A stretch of 64,000 nucleotides of DNA from a virus. Taxonomy: Duplodnaviria; Caudoviricetes. Where the stretch lies: positions 1-64,000 of IMG/VR virus record IMGVR_UViG_3300035101_000015. One strand, given 5' to 3'. The stretch's first letter is position 1, and each line of letters starts with the position of its first letter. This document shows, in pieces, positions 1,971 to 23,712 of this stretch. The position numbers and the translations under genes are program-made. A model generated the notes under the pieces. It was not told where the DNA came from. It was given only the letters and a program-made list of their open reading frames with translations, and ran no database searches.

Positions 1971-2636
1971 TCAGCTTACCACTCTGGACATAGCGGCAAC
2001 AGACGCTATCTTCATGAAGTTCTTGATGGGCTTGTAGCTCTGCCGATGTAGTGGCGTCACTCCGTGGGAGAGTATGCCATTCTTGTGCGCCGGAGTTCCG
2101 TAGCCCATGTTCGTCTTGAATCCGTAGTGCGGGTAGAGCTTGTGCTGTTCCACCATGAAGGCGTCTCTGTGAACCTTAGCTAGGATGCTAGCCGCACTGA
2201 CCGCCGGGACGTGGACATCAGCCTGGGCGAGCCAGACCATGTCCTGAGGCTTGCCGTCGATGACCACCGGCACATCACCATCCTGAACGATGAGGGCCTG
2301 AGGGAACCGGCGAAGGCAGTAGAGCGCGCAGCCCTCGGTGAGCCAATCCCGCACTCTCTTGATACCATGCTTGTCCACCTCGGTGTTACTAGACTCGAGC
2401 ACGACATGTGCGACGCACGCACGGAGGATGATGGCCTTGGCCTTCACCCGACGCTTGGGCGTGAGTTTCTTCGAGTCCTTCACGTCCTTGTGGGACCACC
2501 CCTTGGGTAGGACGACGCCCGCCACTACGACGGGCCCCGCCCAACTACCCATCCCCACCTCGTCGATACCCAGCACGTACTCCGCTGGGTGCTTGGCAAT
2601 CTTCTCGAGCGCGAGCTCTTGGTCGAAGGCGGACAC
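1971..2636 (-). CDS. rnhB: Ribonuclease HII
   Basis: Motifs GIDEVGMGSWAGPVVVA, DSKKLT, DG, VSAASILAKVHRD, YGFKTNMGYGT, HRQSY. Confidence 0.93.
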   Translation of the reverse strand: MSAFDQELALEKIAKHPAEYVLGIDEVGMGSWAGPVVVAGVVLPKGWSHKDVKDSKKLTPKRRVKAKAIILRACVAHVVLESSNTEVDKHGIKRVRDWLTEGCALYCLRRFPQALIVQDGDVPVVIDGKPQDMVWLAQADVHVPAVSAASILAKVHRDAFMVEQHKLYPHYGFKTNMGYGTPAHKNGILSHGVTPLHRQSYKPIKNFMKIASVAAMSRVVS

Positions 2637-2843
2637 CTAGCTCTTCTTGGCCTCCGCTTTCAGGATGTCGAAGTTTAGCGAGTCGATGAGCCGCCAGATG
2701 GCATCCGGCGGGTCCCAACCCTGTTGAATCTGCGCCAGCAGCGCAGCCTTGGCTTCCTTCTTCGCCTTCAGCGTGAACCGAGGCTTCTTCTGAGTAGTGT
2801 TGTCGCTCATAGTCGGGAACAGCTCCAGTTGGGTCATGTTCAT
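2637..2843 (-). CDS. Hypothetical protein
   Basis: 68 aa ORF abutting rnhB. Confidence 0.45.
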   Translation of the reverse strand: MNMTQLELFPTMSDNTTQKKPRFTLKAKKEAKAALLAQIQQGWDPPDAIWRLIDSLNFDILKAEAKKS

Positions 2844-2849
2844 CTTCGT

Positions 2850-3248
2850 CTACTTCTTCTCCTCGAGCAAGGCCCAAGAGATGGTAGAGGTGTACAGGAG
2901 TACGTCCCCATGCTTCGTCCAGCAGCGCCAGTGGATTCCCCCCTCGGTCACCACCATGTGGACGCACTCCACGGAGGCCGTTTCTCCATGCACCGACCCA
3001 GTGAAGTCTCTCACCACGTCGATGTCCTCCAGCTCGTCGTACTGCTCCTCTGCAGGGTTCAGCTCGTACCACTCTACTGACCAGTCGCTGAACTCCATGC
3101 ATTGGAGGTCGCTGTCGTATGCCTTGAGCCCGAGCAGGGCAGCATGCCGTTTCAGGATGCACTCCCTGTCGTGGGCATTCAGAGACACAACAGCCACGTC
3201 AGCCCCCCATGTGTCACTGCTGGAATGAACGCGCAACGCAAACCTCAT
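2850..3248 (-). CDS. Hypothetical protein
   Basis: 132 aa; ATGA overlap with upstream ORF. Confidence 0.65.
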   Translation of the reverse strand: MRFALRVHSSSDTWGADVAVVSLNAHDRECILKRHAALLGLKAYDSDLQCMEFSDWSVEWYELNPAEEQYDELEDIDVVRDFTGSVHGETASVECVHMVVTEGGIHWRCWTKHGDVLLYTSTISWALLEEKK

Positions 3249-20800: not shown

Positions 20801-21508
20801 AGCGCCACGCATGGACGCCATGACCTCCTGGGCCTGCTCCAGGGAGGTGGACATCGCCGTAGCCACCTCCTTGACGGTGCGCATCATCTGCTGGAACTTC
20901 TCTTGAAACTCCTTGGCGTTGCGCACGCCCTGGGCCATGCCCATTCGACCCATACTGGAAGCCAGACGCCCGAGCTCATCCATGGTGACGAACTCACCAC
21001 CGGGCCCGCGCTGCTCGGTCATCGTTCGCATCATCTGACCGATGCGATTAACCTCCCCTCCGCTGAAACCACGGGTGCCTTGAGCGTTAGCGAACTGGAA
21101 CGTCTGATTCAACTGCTGGCCGAGCTGCTGCTGCTCCCGCGCACCCTGCCACATCTGGCTGCCCACGTACTGAGCGCCCATCATGCCAGCCAGGGGTAGC
21201 GCTGCAGCTCCAACACCGGCCATGCCCGCACCCAGCATGCCCGCTCCCCGAGCGCCCCAAGCAGCTCGTAGACCGAGCGTCATCGGGTCGACCCCAGCGA
21301 GCATCATCCCACCAGTCATGAGCGGTGCGCCCATTGCACCAGCCACGTTCATGGCCCCGCCCATCAGTTGCTCTGATTGAGCCTGCCTATTCGGAGCAAC
21401 TCCAGCAAATTGGCTGACCATACTGGAGTGCTGAATGGCACCAACCGTCTGCTGATTGAAGGCAGCGGTCTGGGCCGCAATCTGGTCGGAGGTCATTACC
21501 ATGACCAC
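17858..21508 (-). CDS. Tape-measure-like protein
   Basis: 1216 aa, Ala/Gly/Met/Arg-rich and helical, with N-terminal hydrophobic Gly segments; upstream of baseplate genes. Confidence 0.7.
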   Translation of the reverse strand: MVMVMTSDQIAAQTAAFNQQTVGAIQHSSMVSQFAGVAPNRQAQSEQLMGGAMNVAGAMGAPLMTGGMMLAGVDPMTLGLRAAWGARGAGMLGAGMAGVGAAALPLAGMMGAQYVGSQMWQGAREQQQLGQQLNQTFQFANAQGTRGFSGGEVNRIGQMMRTMTEQRGPGGEFVTMDELGRLASSMGRMGMAQGVRNAKEFQEKFQQMMRTVKEVATAMSTSLEQAQEVMASMRGAGVFGGGRQTAMARMIRAGAVEGGLATSELAQMANVGSQISRAIGGRGQAGAVAGVRAVTNIGAAVQAGVLSEEDIYNATGQTGAAGRQALATNLLQGEARFFKRGLGRRVLAAMAERGGRLDEEMVQRFMGGEVGTGETMREAYGHLARVGRANFIRNEGRLRGEAVAAFGGMGRAVVAQGWLRSRGMNVYDMSDRQMLFFQRKFGFDRDEADAVVKMARDIDRIQETRSDRRDEDEVVRGVERYRRTIGIEGIKRKFESARQEVNNSLKQAGSDLFEWGREHIERTLNKMTGDYVRTVDRDLGGAIRDVMRGREDTAREVFGLGMGGAGRMPLATDMEVNEVFGGAANVGGADWLRQNRKAFGRAGYRFDESGDIGQQLSTFRKLRSAVAAGTHEDVTEMFAAMDLKDMGGSSVEKFKQRMASAISGMEGSGTDRLDKFEQVLRRSGPEGQRLAERYARADIVEKGRIYGAVATSAGVKDPGREFELPDELGLLGEKKFATVGERRETVSDYLFGKRPTAVTRKGWVASLLAAVATAPTGGPGTVGPVGAEQVERQEQMKQAFMGGTEEEARLGKTLTAASKKAAVAYLEDPQTAALSRKALMGDKEERDTAVEQMQGRYLELQRQVKAKADKDEEISDELAGQLAGSKAQVAAGRLARGDSKEDIAKDLDMTVSEVERSGKTVRALEVTAQKRKQRAYFRRAGAMYREERAALGIEVGKGGQQQQDLEDIAAQRARLQKAGLKGEDLDRAMRFVGKYRAGVAAGAEMTGVSDQDRQRHETAQTRFDEAMGELTDMDSASIKRGLAAGVFAAQGGAGAARRVLGRREALAAAKKSRRKGAGLQTIAGMLGGELDEETAKQIYAIDDTQKQAAALEKALGITGKAGAGEMQQLLEAMKKGDIKAAEKEFRDLDTESVRKGLDEKRIKRDDEAARLNDPTVRAIDSMKTVLEGGLKVRMMNAAEIAEHMKKGEGDQPGTGP

Positions 21509-21545
21509 CTCACTCTACCACGGTTTGCAAAGGGACAACCCCTCC

Positions 21546-21554
21546 AGAGATAAG
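21546..21554 (+). promoter_or_regulatory. ATAAG-type putative promoter for the structured RNA
   Basis: AGAGATAAG ends 6 nt before the first base of the RNA terminal stem. Confidence 0.5.
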
Positions 21555-21560
21555 AAGAGT

Positions 21561-21703
21561 GGAGGGAGGCACGACCTCCTCACAGCCTGAAACCGCACAG
21601 GCTCACGCAACCCCCGGCGTGGGCTGGCGGGGGTAAGCCCCCGCACCATGCGTTCTCCTTTCTCCATGAGCGGGAGCAGGCTGCGGCTCTCTTGCCTCCC
21701 TCC
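21561..21703 (+). ncRNA. Putative structured small RNA or regulatory leader with an anti-SD loop
   Basis: 11-bp terminal stem GGAGGGAGGCA/TGCCTCCCTCC, nested 7-bp and 4-bp helices, two hairpins, loop GTTCTCCTTTC; no convincing ORF. Confidence 0.6.
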
Positions 21704-21729
21704 TTACCCCTCATTCGCAACGCCGTTTC

Positions 21730-21738
21730 GGGGATAAG
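21730..21738 (+). promoter_or_regulatory. GGnATAAG-type putative promoter (GGGGATAAG)
   Basis: Directly upstream of RBS GAAAGGAGA and ATG 21760. Confidence 0.55.
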
Positions 21739-21759
21739 AAGAACGGAAAGGAGAACTAC

Positions 21760-22008
21760 ATGTTCGACCCAGTAACGGTATTCATCGTCGCGACAGTCAT
21801 GGTGACGGCTGCCGACAAGTACACCGAGGCAGAAGCCCGTCGCAAGCGGGTGCAGAGACTGCGGGGGAAGAAGGGCAAGGCCAAGGTCATCACCGTCCCC
21901 ATGGAAGTGGGCGATGCAAGGCAGGCCAAGAGGTTCGAGAACTCCGAGGGCTACCGTGACTTCAAAGACATGGTCAAGAGAGGGAGGTACATCAGAGATG
22001 GCGCCTAG
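21760..22008 (+). CDS. Small protein with N-terminal hydrophobic helix and basic tail
   Basis: Strong RBS; MFDPVTVFIVATVMVTAA. Confidence 0.7.
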   Translation: MFDPVTVFIVATVMVTAADKYTEAEARRKRVQRLRGKKGKAKVITVPMEVGDARQAKRFENSEGYRDFKDMVKRGRYIRDGA

Positions 22009-22450
22009 GAGCAGGGAGAGCAGGCCGCTGACACATCGGCCTTTCTCCATCCTGAGAAGCGAAGCGGACCAGGAGCTCGAGGAGATGGGCTACGCACCAT
22101 CTCCTTCTACCCCCAAGCAAAAGCAGAAGGGCTCAGGGGATAAGAAGAATGGTAAGCGGAGAACCGCAAACCGTACTTCCAAGAAGAGCAAGGAGAATGC
22201 CGTGGCAGCAACAACTTCCCGTGCATCGTCAGCCAAGAAGAAGGCAACCAGTCGCAAGGTCACCCGAGCTGGTGGCAAAGAGAAGTCCACCCTCAGCGAC
22301 CTCGGTGAGAGCGCGCTCGAGGTGGCGGCCGAGGACATCGCCAGACCGATGATTCGCGGCGCAGCTACTGGCTTCGGGGTCGCCGGCGGCGTCATCATCG
22401 CAGGCAACCTCGCCTCGAAGACAGGGATGAAGGTCCCCCTCTTCAGCTAG
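21998..22450 (+). CDS. Lys-rich protein with C-terminal glycine-zipper/TM segment
   Basis: Start MAPRSR behind GGAGG; GAATGFGVAGGVIIAG. Confidence 0.65.
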   Translation: MAPRSRESRPLTHRPFSILRSEADQELEEMGYAPSPSTPKQKQKGSGDKKNGKRRTANRTSKKSKENAVAATTSRASSAKKKATSRKVTRAGGKEKSTLSDLGESALEVAAEDIARPMIRGAATGFGVAGGVIIAGNLASKTGMKVPLFS

Positions 22451-22504
22451 CGAAGCGCAGCTACAACAACCACAACGGAGCCACCCCCTGCCGGCAAAGT
22501 GTGG

Positions 22505-22535
22505 CCCCGGCGCCCCCTGACAAGGGGCGCCGGGG
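22505..22535 (+). terminator. Perfect 12-bp GC hairpin, probable terminator or processing stem
   Basis: CCCCGGCGCCCC-CTGACAA-GGGGCGCCGGGG after a two-gene operon; no immediate U tract. Confidence 0.5.
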
Positions 22536-22655
22536 GTACATGATTCCCCTCTTTCTAGCCCCAGAGTGAGACTTCTTCATTGAATCGACGTGCTTTATGT
22601 TGTTTTCCCCTTGTCAAGTACAACCTGGGGATTCATCCTTACATGTAGGCAACCA

Positions 22656-22943
22656 ATGAACCTCCACCCCGTACCAATTGGTGTACCCGTGACTTTCGAG
22701 AATGTAGCTACCAGCCTTGAGGCTGTACGCTCACTGCTCGAGCGCGAGGGCTACACCGAGGAAGCTCGTGTCCTTCGCGGACTCGAAGTACTGAGTCCGT
22801 CGGGGGCACAGGTTGCACTCGACGCCCTGCGCTCCATCACCGTACGGTCCCCGGACTGTGCGGATGCTATCGCCTACGCGATGGCTGCTCTGCGTCAGGC
22901 GTCAGGCCGTCCGTCGTTCACTCCGCCGGCTCGGGCCGCATAA
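22656..22943 (+). CDS. Hypothetical protein
   Basis: Likely start MNLHPVP after an AT-richer intergenic stretch. Confidence 0.55.
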   Translation: MNLHPVPIGVPVTFENVATSLEAVRSLLEREGYTEEARVLRGLEVLSPSGAQVALDALRSITVRSPDCADAIAYAMAALRQASGRPSFTPPARAA

Positions 22944-22960
22944 AAGACGCCTCCTTTCGC

Positions 22961-22968
22961 GGGATAAG
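22961..22968 (+). promoter_or_regulatory. GGnATAAG-type putative promoter (GGGATAAG)
   Basis: Intergenic, upstream of RBS GAAAGGAGA and ATG 23014. Confidence 0.55.
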
Positions 22969-23013
22969 AACCTTGCGGAGGCCGGCTTTGCCTCCGTCGC
23001 GAAAGGAGACGAG

Positions 23014-23712
23014 ATGCGGCTATTCAGAGTCGAACGAGAGTGGTCTACGGGTGATGACGGGGCCCAAGAGGTTCCCGAGACGGACCGGTACATGCTGGTA
23101 CAACGGGGGTCTGAGGGCCCCGGCATCTACTTTGGCCACGACGAGGAGGGTGCAGACCTGGCTCTTCCAGTAGGGAAGGACCTGGCCAAGCCCTTCGAGG
23201 ACAACGAGGAGCTCCAGTCGCTGCCCCTGAAGGCAGCCCGACTGGGAACGGAACCGTACCGCCTGCTCGTGCCGACCAGGGACGAGCTCGGCAAGCTCGA
23301 GCGCGGCAGCTACTACGGGGACTGTCTGGTCCACGTGAGCCTACCACGTCACGAGAACTGCAACGTCACCTTCATGGCGAGCACCTACAAGGAGCACGTC
23401 ATGCAGTACAAGACGTACCGCAGGGTCGAGCGCGAGTACGAGTCCATCGAGGAGGCCGTTGGCGTTCAGCTCGTCTTCATCAGTGAGGACAAGCACGAGG
23501 CCATCTTCTCGCTCCATCCAGGGGCGAGCTTTCGCATCTGCCGGGATGAGGCGACGGTGCCAAAGGGCGAGAGCCCTGTGCTGGTGTTTGCCTTCGACGG
23601 TCGGACGGGGAACTGCTTCCGACCAAAGAAGTTCAAGCCCAGGTCGCGCAAGCGCCCAAATCGGCGGAAGAAGAAAGAGGAGGTCGTGTCAGCCGCCTAC
23701 GGCGCATCCTGA
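23014..23712 (+). CDS. Hypothetical protein
   Basis: Start MRLFRVE with GAAAGGAG RBS; 232 aa. Confidence 0.7.
   Translation: MRLFRVEREWSTGDDGAQEVPETDRYMLVQRGSEGPGIYFGHDEEGADLALPVGKDLAKPFEDNEELQSLPLKAARLGTEPYRLLVPTRDELGKLERGSYYGDCLVHVSLPRHENCNVTFMASTYKEHVMQYKTYRRVEREYESIEEAVGVQLVFISEDKHEAIFSLHPGASFRICRDEATVPKGESPVLVFAFDGRTGNCFRPKKFKPRSRKRPNRRKKKEEVVSAAYGAS

Follow-up and report, generated by a model that had tools for sequence, protein, structure and literature searches.

A covarying structured RNA with predicted unpaired anti-SD motifs at a conserved locus of large uncultured phages: a candidate translational insulator

Some mRNAs are stabilised by 5′-terminal stem-loops, examples being the hairpin in the ompA leader and, in Bacillus, SD-like 5′ stabilisers. 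CU-rich anti-SD (aSD) elements have been described in the mRNAs of the type I toxins aapA3 and hok, where the primary transcript is translationally inert and a shorter RNA is active (PMC6733600). CU-rich or UCCC-containing loops also occur in the Gram-positive small RNAs LhrC1-5, RsaE, RNAIII, SprD and FsrA, which carry redundant loop sites complementary to purine-rich ribosome-binding sites (RBSs) (PMC4132741).

The phage RNA analysed here resembles the aapA3 and hok leaders in that a CU-rich segment of the same RNA is set against the SD, a helix at the 5′-end shapes the fold, and a shorter species is proposed to be the active one. In contrast to those leaders, its closing helix does not span the whole mRNA but encloses only a 143-nt leader, a second start signal instead of 3′ trimming would give the active form, no antisense antitoxin RNA was seen, and the gene concerned sits in a conserved four-gene operon with three co-oriented genes downstream. 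The long-distance 5′–3′ helix of the type I toxin mRNAs was not found in the phage leader, while the arrangement typical of cis-acting SD-sequestering leaders, in which the SD of a gene finds its complement in an anti-SD farther upstream on the same strand, was present. With the LhrC-type sRNAs it shares several redundant unpaired CU-rich sites in loops or single strands, but neither sequence nor covariance-model similarity was detected; moreover, the phage-encoded RNA is not followed by a terminator in the window, its best target lies 94 nt downstream on the same strand, and in place of UCCC it has the full 16S-tail octamer. A stable helix at the predicted first transcribed nucleotide and an SD-like 5′ strand recall the ompA and Bacillus stabilisers, although in the phage RNA the SD-like strand is paired, not free for the 30S subunit, and the CU-rich interior would be without a role in such a stabiliser. 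The helix built from an SD-like 5′-end, the full 16S-tail octamer and the start signal nested between anti-SD and SD distinguish the element from the known systems, and we regard it as a new, covariation-supported RNA family working by a known principle.

The window, that is, the whole 64-kb stretch analysed, is the first part of an IMG/VR virus record of 145,842 bp with 61% G+C. The element lies in a 257-nt intergenic gap between two divergent genes. The large gene on the minus strand starts at 21502 (MVMTSDQI), encodes 1,214 aa and belongs to a set of more than 400 homologues; the relatives keep the gene order around it. In the collection this gene was called as 1,026 aa (window 20938-21508), while the homologues span the full 1,214 aa from 21502; in the closest relative, L002, its true N-terminus was replaced in the gene call by a spurious out-of-frame 171-aa ORF (2547-3062). 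On the plus strand, gene 1 (21760-22008, ATG at 21760) encodes an 82-aa membrane-type protein whose N-terminus forms a hydrophobic helix and whose tail is basic; this gene opens a rightward four-gene unit whose synteny with the large divergent gene is kept in the relatives. Pfam and PHROG searches assigned no family to gene 1 or the large gene, an Atlas search on the regulated genes gave no lead, the AlphaFold model of gene 4 (pLDDT 70) had no match in the PDB, and a distant blastn search of the region against the annotated phage collection returned no resembling record. Gene 2 (window 21998-22450) most likely starts at ATG 21998, as in L002, with an 11-nt overlap with the end of gene 1, which points to a possible translational coupling of both genes. 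Behind gene 2, a GC-rich hairpin (CCCCGGCGCCCC/GGGGCGCCGGGG, window 22500-22560) is followed by a CU-rich stretch, CCCCUCUUUCU, upstream of gene 3. On the other side of the gap, just 5′ of the large gene start, CTCTACCACG (window 21510-21521; CGTGGTAGAG on the minus strand) is kept in most relatives but did not recur elsewhere in the genome; the idea that GTGGTAGAGT, upstream of the large gene, is a recurrent late promoter was rejected for lack of recurrence.

The MFE fold and the covariance model define a structured domain of 143 nt on the plus strand (21561-21703). The initial annotation had proposed a structured RNA at this place, and the structure is beyond chance: the MFE is −79.3 kcal/mol compared with −57.8 ± 4.2 kcal/mol for 200 dinucleotide shuffles (z = −5.12), none of which folded as well. 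The minus strand of the same segment folds less exceptionally (z = −3.75). The closing helix consists of 11 perfect base pairs between the purine-rich, SD-like 5′ strand GGAGGGAGGCA (21561-21571) and the 3′ strand UGCCUCCCUCC (21693-21703), behind which UUACCCC follows. Three nucleotides after the 5′ strand comes CU-rich motif 1, CCUCCUC (21575-21581). The interior contains two inner hairpins, 21600-21625 with the loop AACCCCCG and 21627-21644 with the loop UAAG, and then a CAUG/CAUG hairpin (21647-21668) whose 14-nt loop holds CU-rich motif 2, GUUCUCCUUUC (21652-21662), with a mean unpaired probability of 0.92. All the pairings listed earlier, namely, the closing helix, CAGCCTG/CAGGCTG, CCGC/GCGG and both inner hairpins, were found in the sequence as well as in the MFE fold. 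The further suggestion of two conformers, in which the loop ACCCCCG would alternatively pair with CGGGGGT, did not hold up in comparison, as L002 has a C-rich loop with no G-run partner. The inner hairpins occur in none of the short forms of the element, and in L002 the hairpin loop CACCCCCA sits on another stem. No known family accounts for the RNA: Rfam 15 gave no match at gathering score in the whole window, and a scan of 21450-21850 with an E-value cut-off of 10 returned only chance-level eukaryotic matches of 11-15 bits.

When the surroundings of large-gene homologues were compared at 34 loci, nine lineages, including the window, were found to carry the element. Covariation in related phages, which had been named as a check on the RNA, was indeed seen, since the element occurs at the same locus in eight related uncultured phages, with lengths of 63-142 nt and compensatory changes. 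In the nine aligned sequences, 98.2% of the cells of the closing helix are paired, and changes on both sides were found in 8 of its 13 pairs, a level reached by none of 500 shuffles; pairing falls to 49-69% when the partner strand is slid. The fold z-scores of the relatives range from −1.95 to −5.75. Read on the plus strand, all four wobble cells of the helix are G-U or U-G and none is A-C; on the opposite strand they would be A-C mismatches. From the alignment a covariance model, R1, was derived, which gives 64.5 bits on the plus strand as against 23.2 bits on the minus strand and finds a single copy in the genome. The wobble pairs and the model scores favour the plus strand. R1 detected no further copy elsewhere in the genome or among 113 loci. 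Pattern scans, two on viral and one on genome contigs, yielded no additional true element, and a second protein-based scan for relatives returned only known records. In a tree of the N-terminus of the large protein, all element-bearing lineages fall into one clade and lineages without the insert are nested inside it, which suggests that the element was inherited, with losses.

These data also bear on the possibility that the region is a DNA-level or coding feature, such as a miniature transposon, an inverted repeat that binds protein or acts as an origin, or a minus-strand ORF that uses the "anti-SD" as its own SD. The inverted repeat is of course present in the DNA too, GATAAGAAGA flanks the region, and on the minus strand GAAAGGAGAAC-GC-ATG opens a frame of 44 codons. 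However, both the orientation of the wobble cells and the bit scores single out the plus strand; the minus-strand start is present only in the window, L002 and L030 (there as TTG) and lacking in L003, L004 and L018, and the encoded peptides are unrelated. A MITE or other transposon was rejected on the grounds of the single genome copy, the position of the second GATAAGAAGA 30 nt from the repeat, and inheritance at one locus within the clade. We therefore consider a DNA-level or coding origin extremely unlikely. Two small ORFs were discarded separately. The plus-strand frame of 29 codons (21648-21737) has no SD and exists only in the window and, as 18 codons, in L002, and the minus-strand frame that runs from ATG 21649 to TAG 21515, in frame with the large gene, is interrupted by a stop in L002, gives peptides without relationship to one another and has no start codon in several relatives.

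Immediately upstream of the domain lies a putative bipartite promoter motif on the plus strand, P1 (21526-21554), consisting of TGCAAA (21526-21531), a 17-nt spacer and GATAAG (21549-21554). The loose pattern GCAAN-N14-19-NATAA[GCA]A has four copies in the genome, P1 among them, all of them on the plus strand, and GCAA(A)-N16-18-GATAAGAA is kept at the P1 position in most relatives. The core GATAAGAAGA occurs three times in the genome, every time on the plus strand and within 21549-22148. The first base of the closing helix lies at the G of GATAAG + 12 nt at P1, at the comparable motif P4 of this genome (GGGATAAGAAC, 22961-22971, followed by the hairpin 22975-23000) and at P1 of all eight element-bearing relatives; in relatives without the insert, this same position is occupied by the SD of the small gene. 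Because the 12-nt spacing is fixed and an SD takes the same place where the insert is missing, the element probably begins at the transcription start of P1, and its purine-rich 5′ strand can be regarded, on positional grounds, as homologous to an SD. Two ATAAG motifs had been noted in the initial annotation, one ending 6 nt upstream of the stem and the other between the RNA and the RBS; both are there, the latter at 21734. It belongs to P2 (21730-21743, plus strand), a second GGGGATAAGAAGAA motif with a predicted start at about 21745, whose promoter function is putative and which has no GCAA box at the usual N16-18 spacing. A complete bipartite motif, GCAAAA-N16-GATAAGAAGA, is situated inside gene 2 (window 22117-22148) and has the 14-mer GGGGATAAGAAGAA in common with the 21730 motif, and a motif of this kind follows gene 1 at about the same distance in L018 and L023.

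Outside the closing helix, the interiors of the nine elements cannot be aligned, and yet a (C)CUCCUUUC-like motif follows the 5′ strand at a distance of 1-5 nt in all nine (in L032 only as CUCCU). The mean unpaired probability of this first motif is 0.84-0.95 in six elements and 0.62-0.79 in the window, L002 and L032; taken together, the CU-rich motifs, of which each element has one to three copies, range from 0.62 to 1.0. The exact octamer CUCCUUUC is predicted to be unpaired in seven of the nine interiors. The second loop of all four long forms contains G(C/U)GUUCUCCUUUC; the window, L002 and L030 have GCGUUCUCCUUUC in common, while L032 has GUGUUCUCCUUUC. The motifs resemble a Gram-positive-type 16S rRNA 3′ tail, and they complement GAAAGGAG, the usual SD of the family.

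Such a resemblance can be read as mimicry. The displayed CCUCCUUUC copies could act as a decoy of the 16S 3′ tail, titrating some nuclease or other protein by which the anti-SD region of the ribosome is recognised, or soak up strong RBSs globally. Some toxins cut UCCUU in the 16S tail, several copies of the motif are present per RNA, and the match to the Gram-positive-type tail CACCUCCUUUC reaches 10-11 nt in L023 and L030. However, UCCUU is absent in L031, and the match refers to a general tail type; in our judgement this decoy is very unlikely. A related reading, which we also regard as improbable but with somewhat more room for it, is that early transcription from P1 yields a free small RNA that mimics the 16S tail and whose CCUCCUUUC copies would compete with ribosomes for strong RBSs or serve as a decoy for a factor attacking the 16S tail. 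Were this so, the phage would reprogramme which messages are translated, beyond one neighbouring gene.

A nearer partner of the motifs is the RBS of gene 1 (21745-21762, plus strand), composed of GGAAAGGAGAAC, UA and CAUG with the start codon at 21760. The loop was earlier described as the exact complement of this site, and GTTCTCCTTTC (21652-21662) is indeed the perfect reverse complement of GAAAGGAGAAC (21746-21756); the 11 perfect pairs are joined by one G-U pair, and CAUG 21647-21650 can pair with CAUG 21759-21762, covering the start codon. Each of these 11-mers has one copy in the 145,842-bp genome, and in a scan of the window's own genome the gene-1 site was the longest complement of the loop. 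The matches of 9 nt that had been claimed for other RBSs were also located, at 23001 and 61183. The loop/RBS duplex has a predicted energy of −19.1 kcal/mol, which, with an opening cost of 5.0, leaves a net −14.1 kcal/mol; the net value for a generic 16S tail is −9.4. When the RNA is folded without the 5′ half of the element, the loop/RBS helix forms, extended by the two CAUG segments; in the intact element the loop/SD contact is a pseudoknot and lies beyond the reach of nested folding. No terminator-like site was predicted between the loop and the RBS.

Across the lineages, cognate loop/SD pairs have longer matches than non-cognate ones (permutation test, p = 0.014; p = 0.027 without the closest relative), while the same kind of test on duplex energy gave p = 0.21, and in six of the nine lineages the net energy is weak, −1 to −5 kcal/mol. 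These values suggest at most a modest specific co-variation of the loop with the gene-1 site, and part of the complementarity is automatic, since both partners resemble the SD/anti-SD consensus. The second promoter motif between element and SD is present in the window, L002, L004, L023, L030 and L032 and absent from L003, L018 and L031. Matches are 9-11 nt long in the lineages having this second GGGGATAAGAA motif and 5-7 nt in the three without it, the lineages not being independent; the split fits the notion that silencing of the long RNA is affordable only where there is a second start.

A sibling arrangement precedes gene 4 of the same operon (22935-23020, plus strand). Here an anti-SD, CUCCUUUCGCG (22951-22961), is followed by GGGATAAGAAC (22961-22971), a 5′ hairpin (22975-23000), the SD CGCGAAAGGAG (22998-23008) and the AUG at 23014. 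Anti-SD and SD are perfectly complementary over 11 nt, and the helix is nested. The RNA 22935-23030 folds with −45 kcal/mol (z = −4.63) and both SD and AUG are paired in it, while in an RNA starting at 22973 the SD is free (z = −0.04). The last nucleotides of gene 3 supply the outer strand, GCCGCAU, which pairs with the start codon of gene 4, and the layout may also couple gene-4 translation to that of gene 3. Six relatives share the layout and, in the seven lineages including the window, the flanks of the helix compensate each other (UUUUGC/GCAAAA, CAC/GUG, UUGC/GCAA and CGU/ACG). Judged by this covariation, it is a selected feature of the operon that a CU-rich strand sequesters an SD lying downstream of it, across GGGATAAGAA, which makes it more probable from the outset that gene 1 follows this logic too.

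The gene-4 element is also relevant to the idea that the RNA is purely a 5′-terminal stabiliser, a blunt helix protecting the operon mRNA from 5′-end-dependent decay, with the CU-rich stretches as by-products, that is, complements or degenerate copies of the SD-like 5′ strand. It would agree with such a role that a hairpin opens the transcripts predicted from the same promoter type at P4, at genome position 82694 and in L028, that the 5′ strand takes the position held by the homologous SD in insert-less relatives and that the interior motifs resemble the 3′ strand. For stabilisation, however, the helix alone would suffice, the octamer is kept unpaired in most of the otherwise unalignable interiors, and the CU-rich strand at gene 4 covaries with the SD and not with a 5′ strand. 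We consider this explanation unlikely. The site at genome ~82694-82765, outside the window, consists of a bipartite motif and then a hairpin of an SD-like strand and a CCGCCUUUCA strand, abutting a real SD, GAAAGGAAG, and AUG.

Another question is whether the RNA ends at its closing helix. The initial annotation had left two readings side by side, a trans-acting anti-SD sRNA and a two-promoter switch; common to both, a real RNA directly after P1 with a conserved anti-SD motif predicted to be unpaired has stood. As a separate small RNA made from P1, it would pair in trans through its unpaired CU- or C-rich loops with purine-rich RBSs of phage or host mRNAs, possibly including gene 1 transcribed from P2, and block initiation, in the manner of LhrC, RsaE and RNAIII-type sRNAs. 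It would agree with this reading that in L034 and L007, which are related but outside the clade, the same locus has P1, a structured RNA with a CU-rich loop, a strong stem with UUU(U)AGC and a complete second promoter. This distinct small-RNA unit (in L034 at ~1180-1390 on the minus strand of the locus) carries ACCUCCUUUUCU in the loop of its 5′ hairpin, and its terminator comprises 12-14 bp. Within the clade, UUUAGC comes directly after the closing helix in L030 and L032; in these two lineages GUUC beside the motif is kept although their RBSs do not match it, a hint of another target. Redundant unpaired CU-rich sites have a precedent in LhrC, which has three (PMC4132741). In the window, however, the helix is followed by UUACCCCUC, which has no U tract, and the terminator scan called no site at 21703; in L003, L018 and L031, where terminator and second promoter are both missing, the element must be part of a 5′ UTR; and the best complement in the scanned genome of the window is the adjacent cis site, no conserved distant target having been identified. 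Thus, action purely in trans is rather unlikely for this RNA, but the family may well span both the cis-leader and the trans-sRNA modes.

Starting from the structure, the covariation of the helix, the conserved unpaired motif, its complementarity to the RBS and the recurrent layout, we tentatively favour, at slightly less than an even chance, a promoter-proximal leader RNA that serves as a translational insulator, in which long transcripts are closed and short ones open. Transcription from P1 would begin at about 21561, and the SD-like 5′-end would be locked into the 11-bp helix with 21693-21703, giving a blunt and stable 5′ terminus. The closing helix would keep the CU-rich interior open, displaying the 16S-tail-like CUCCUUUC copies. 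When the polymerase reads past 21703, the loop (21647-21663) would capture the gene-1 RBS (21745-21762, SD and AUG), and the P1 transcripts would be closed to the 30S subunit. RNAs with a 5′-end at about 21745 would be without the anti-SD and would be translated; these ends could arise from GGGGATAAGAA acting as a promoter without an upstream box or from a cut at GGGGATAAGAA, with the same outcome either way. At gene 4 the same logic would operate as a simple nested helix. The two-promoter switch of the initial annotation gains from the covarying gene-4 sibling but cannot stand as a general rule: because L003, L018 and L031 have no second promoter motif, a strict switch is not universal, and in these three lineages the leader cannot simply silence gene 1.

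The element adds a covariation-supported RNA family to a clade of large uncultured phages with almost no annotated genes, and its layout pins the probable start of a promoter class that is not sigma70-like to the G of GATAAG + 12. If the trans or the decoy reading were true, the phage would possess in this RNA a means of controlling translation initiation globally. For the favoured insulator, the recurring order of anti-SD, GGGATAAGAA, 5′ hairpin and SD suggests a simple rule by which the translation of a gene may be isolated from read-through from upstream promoters.
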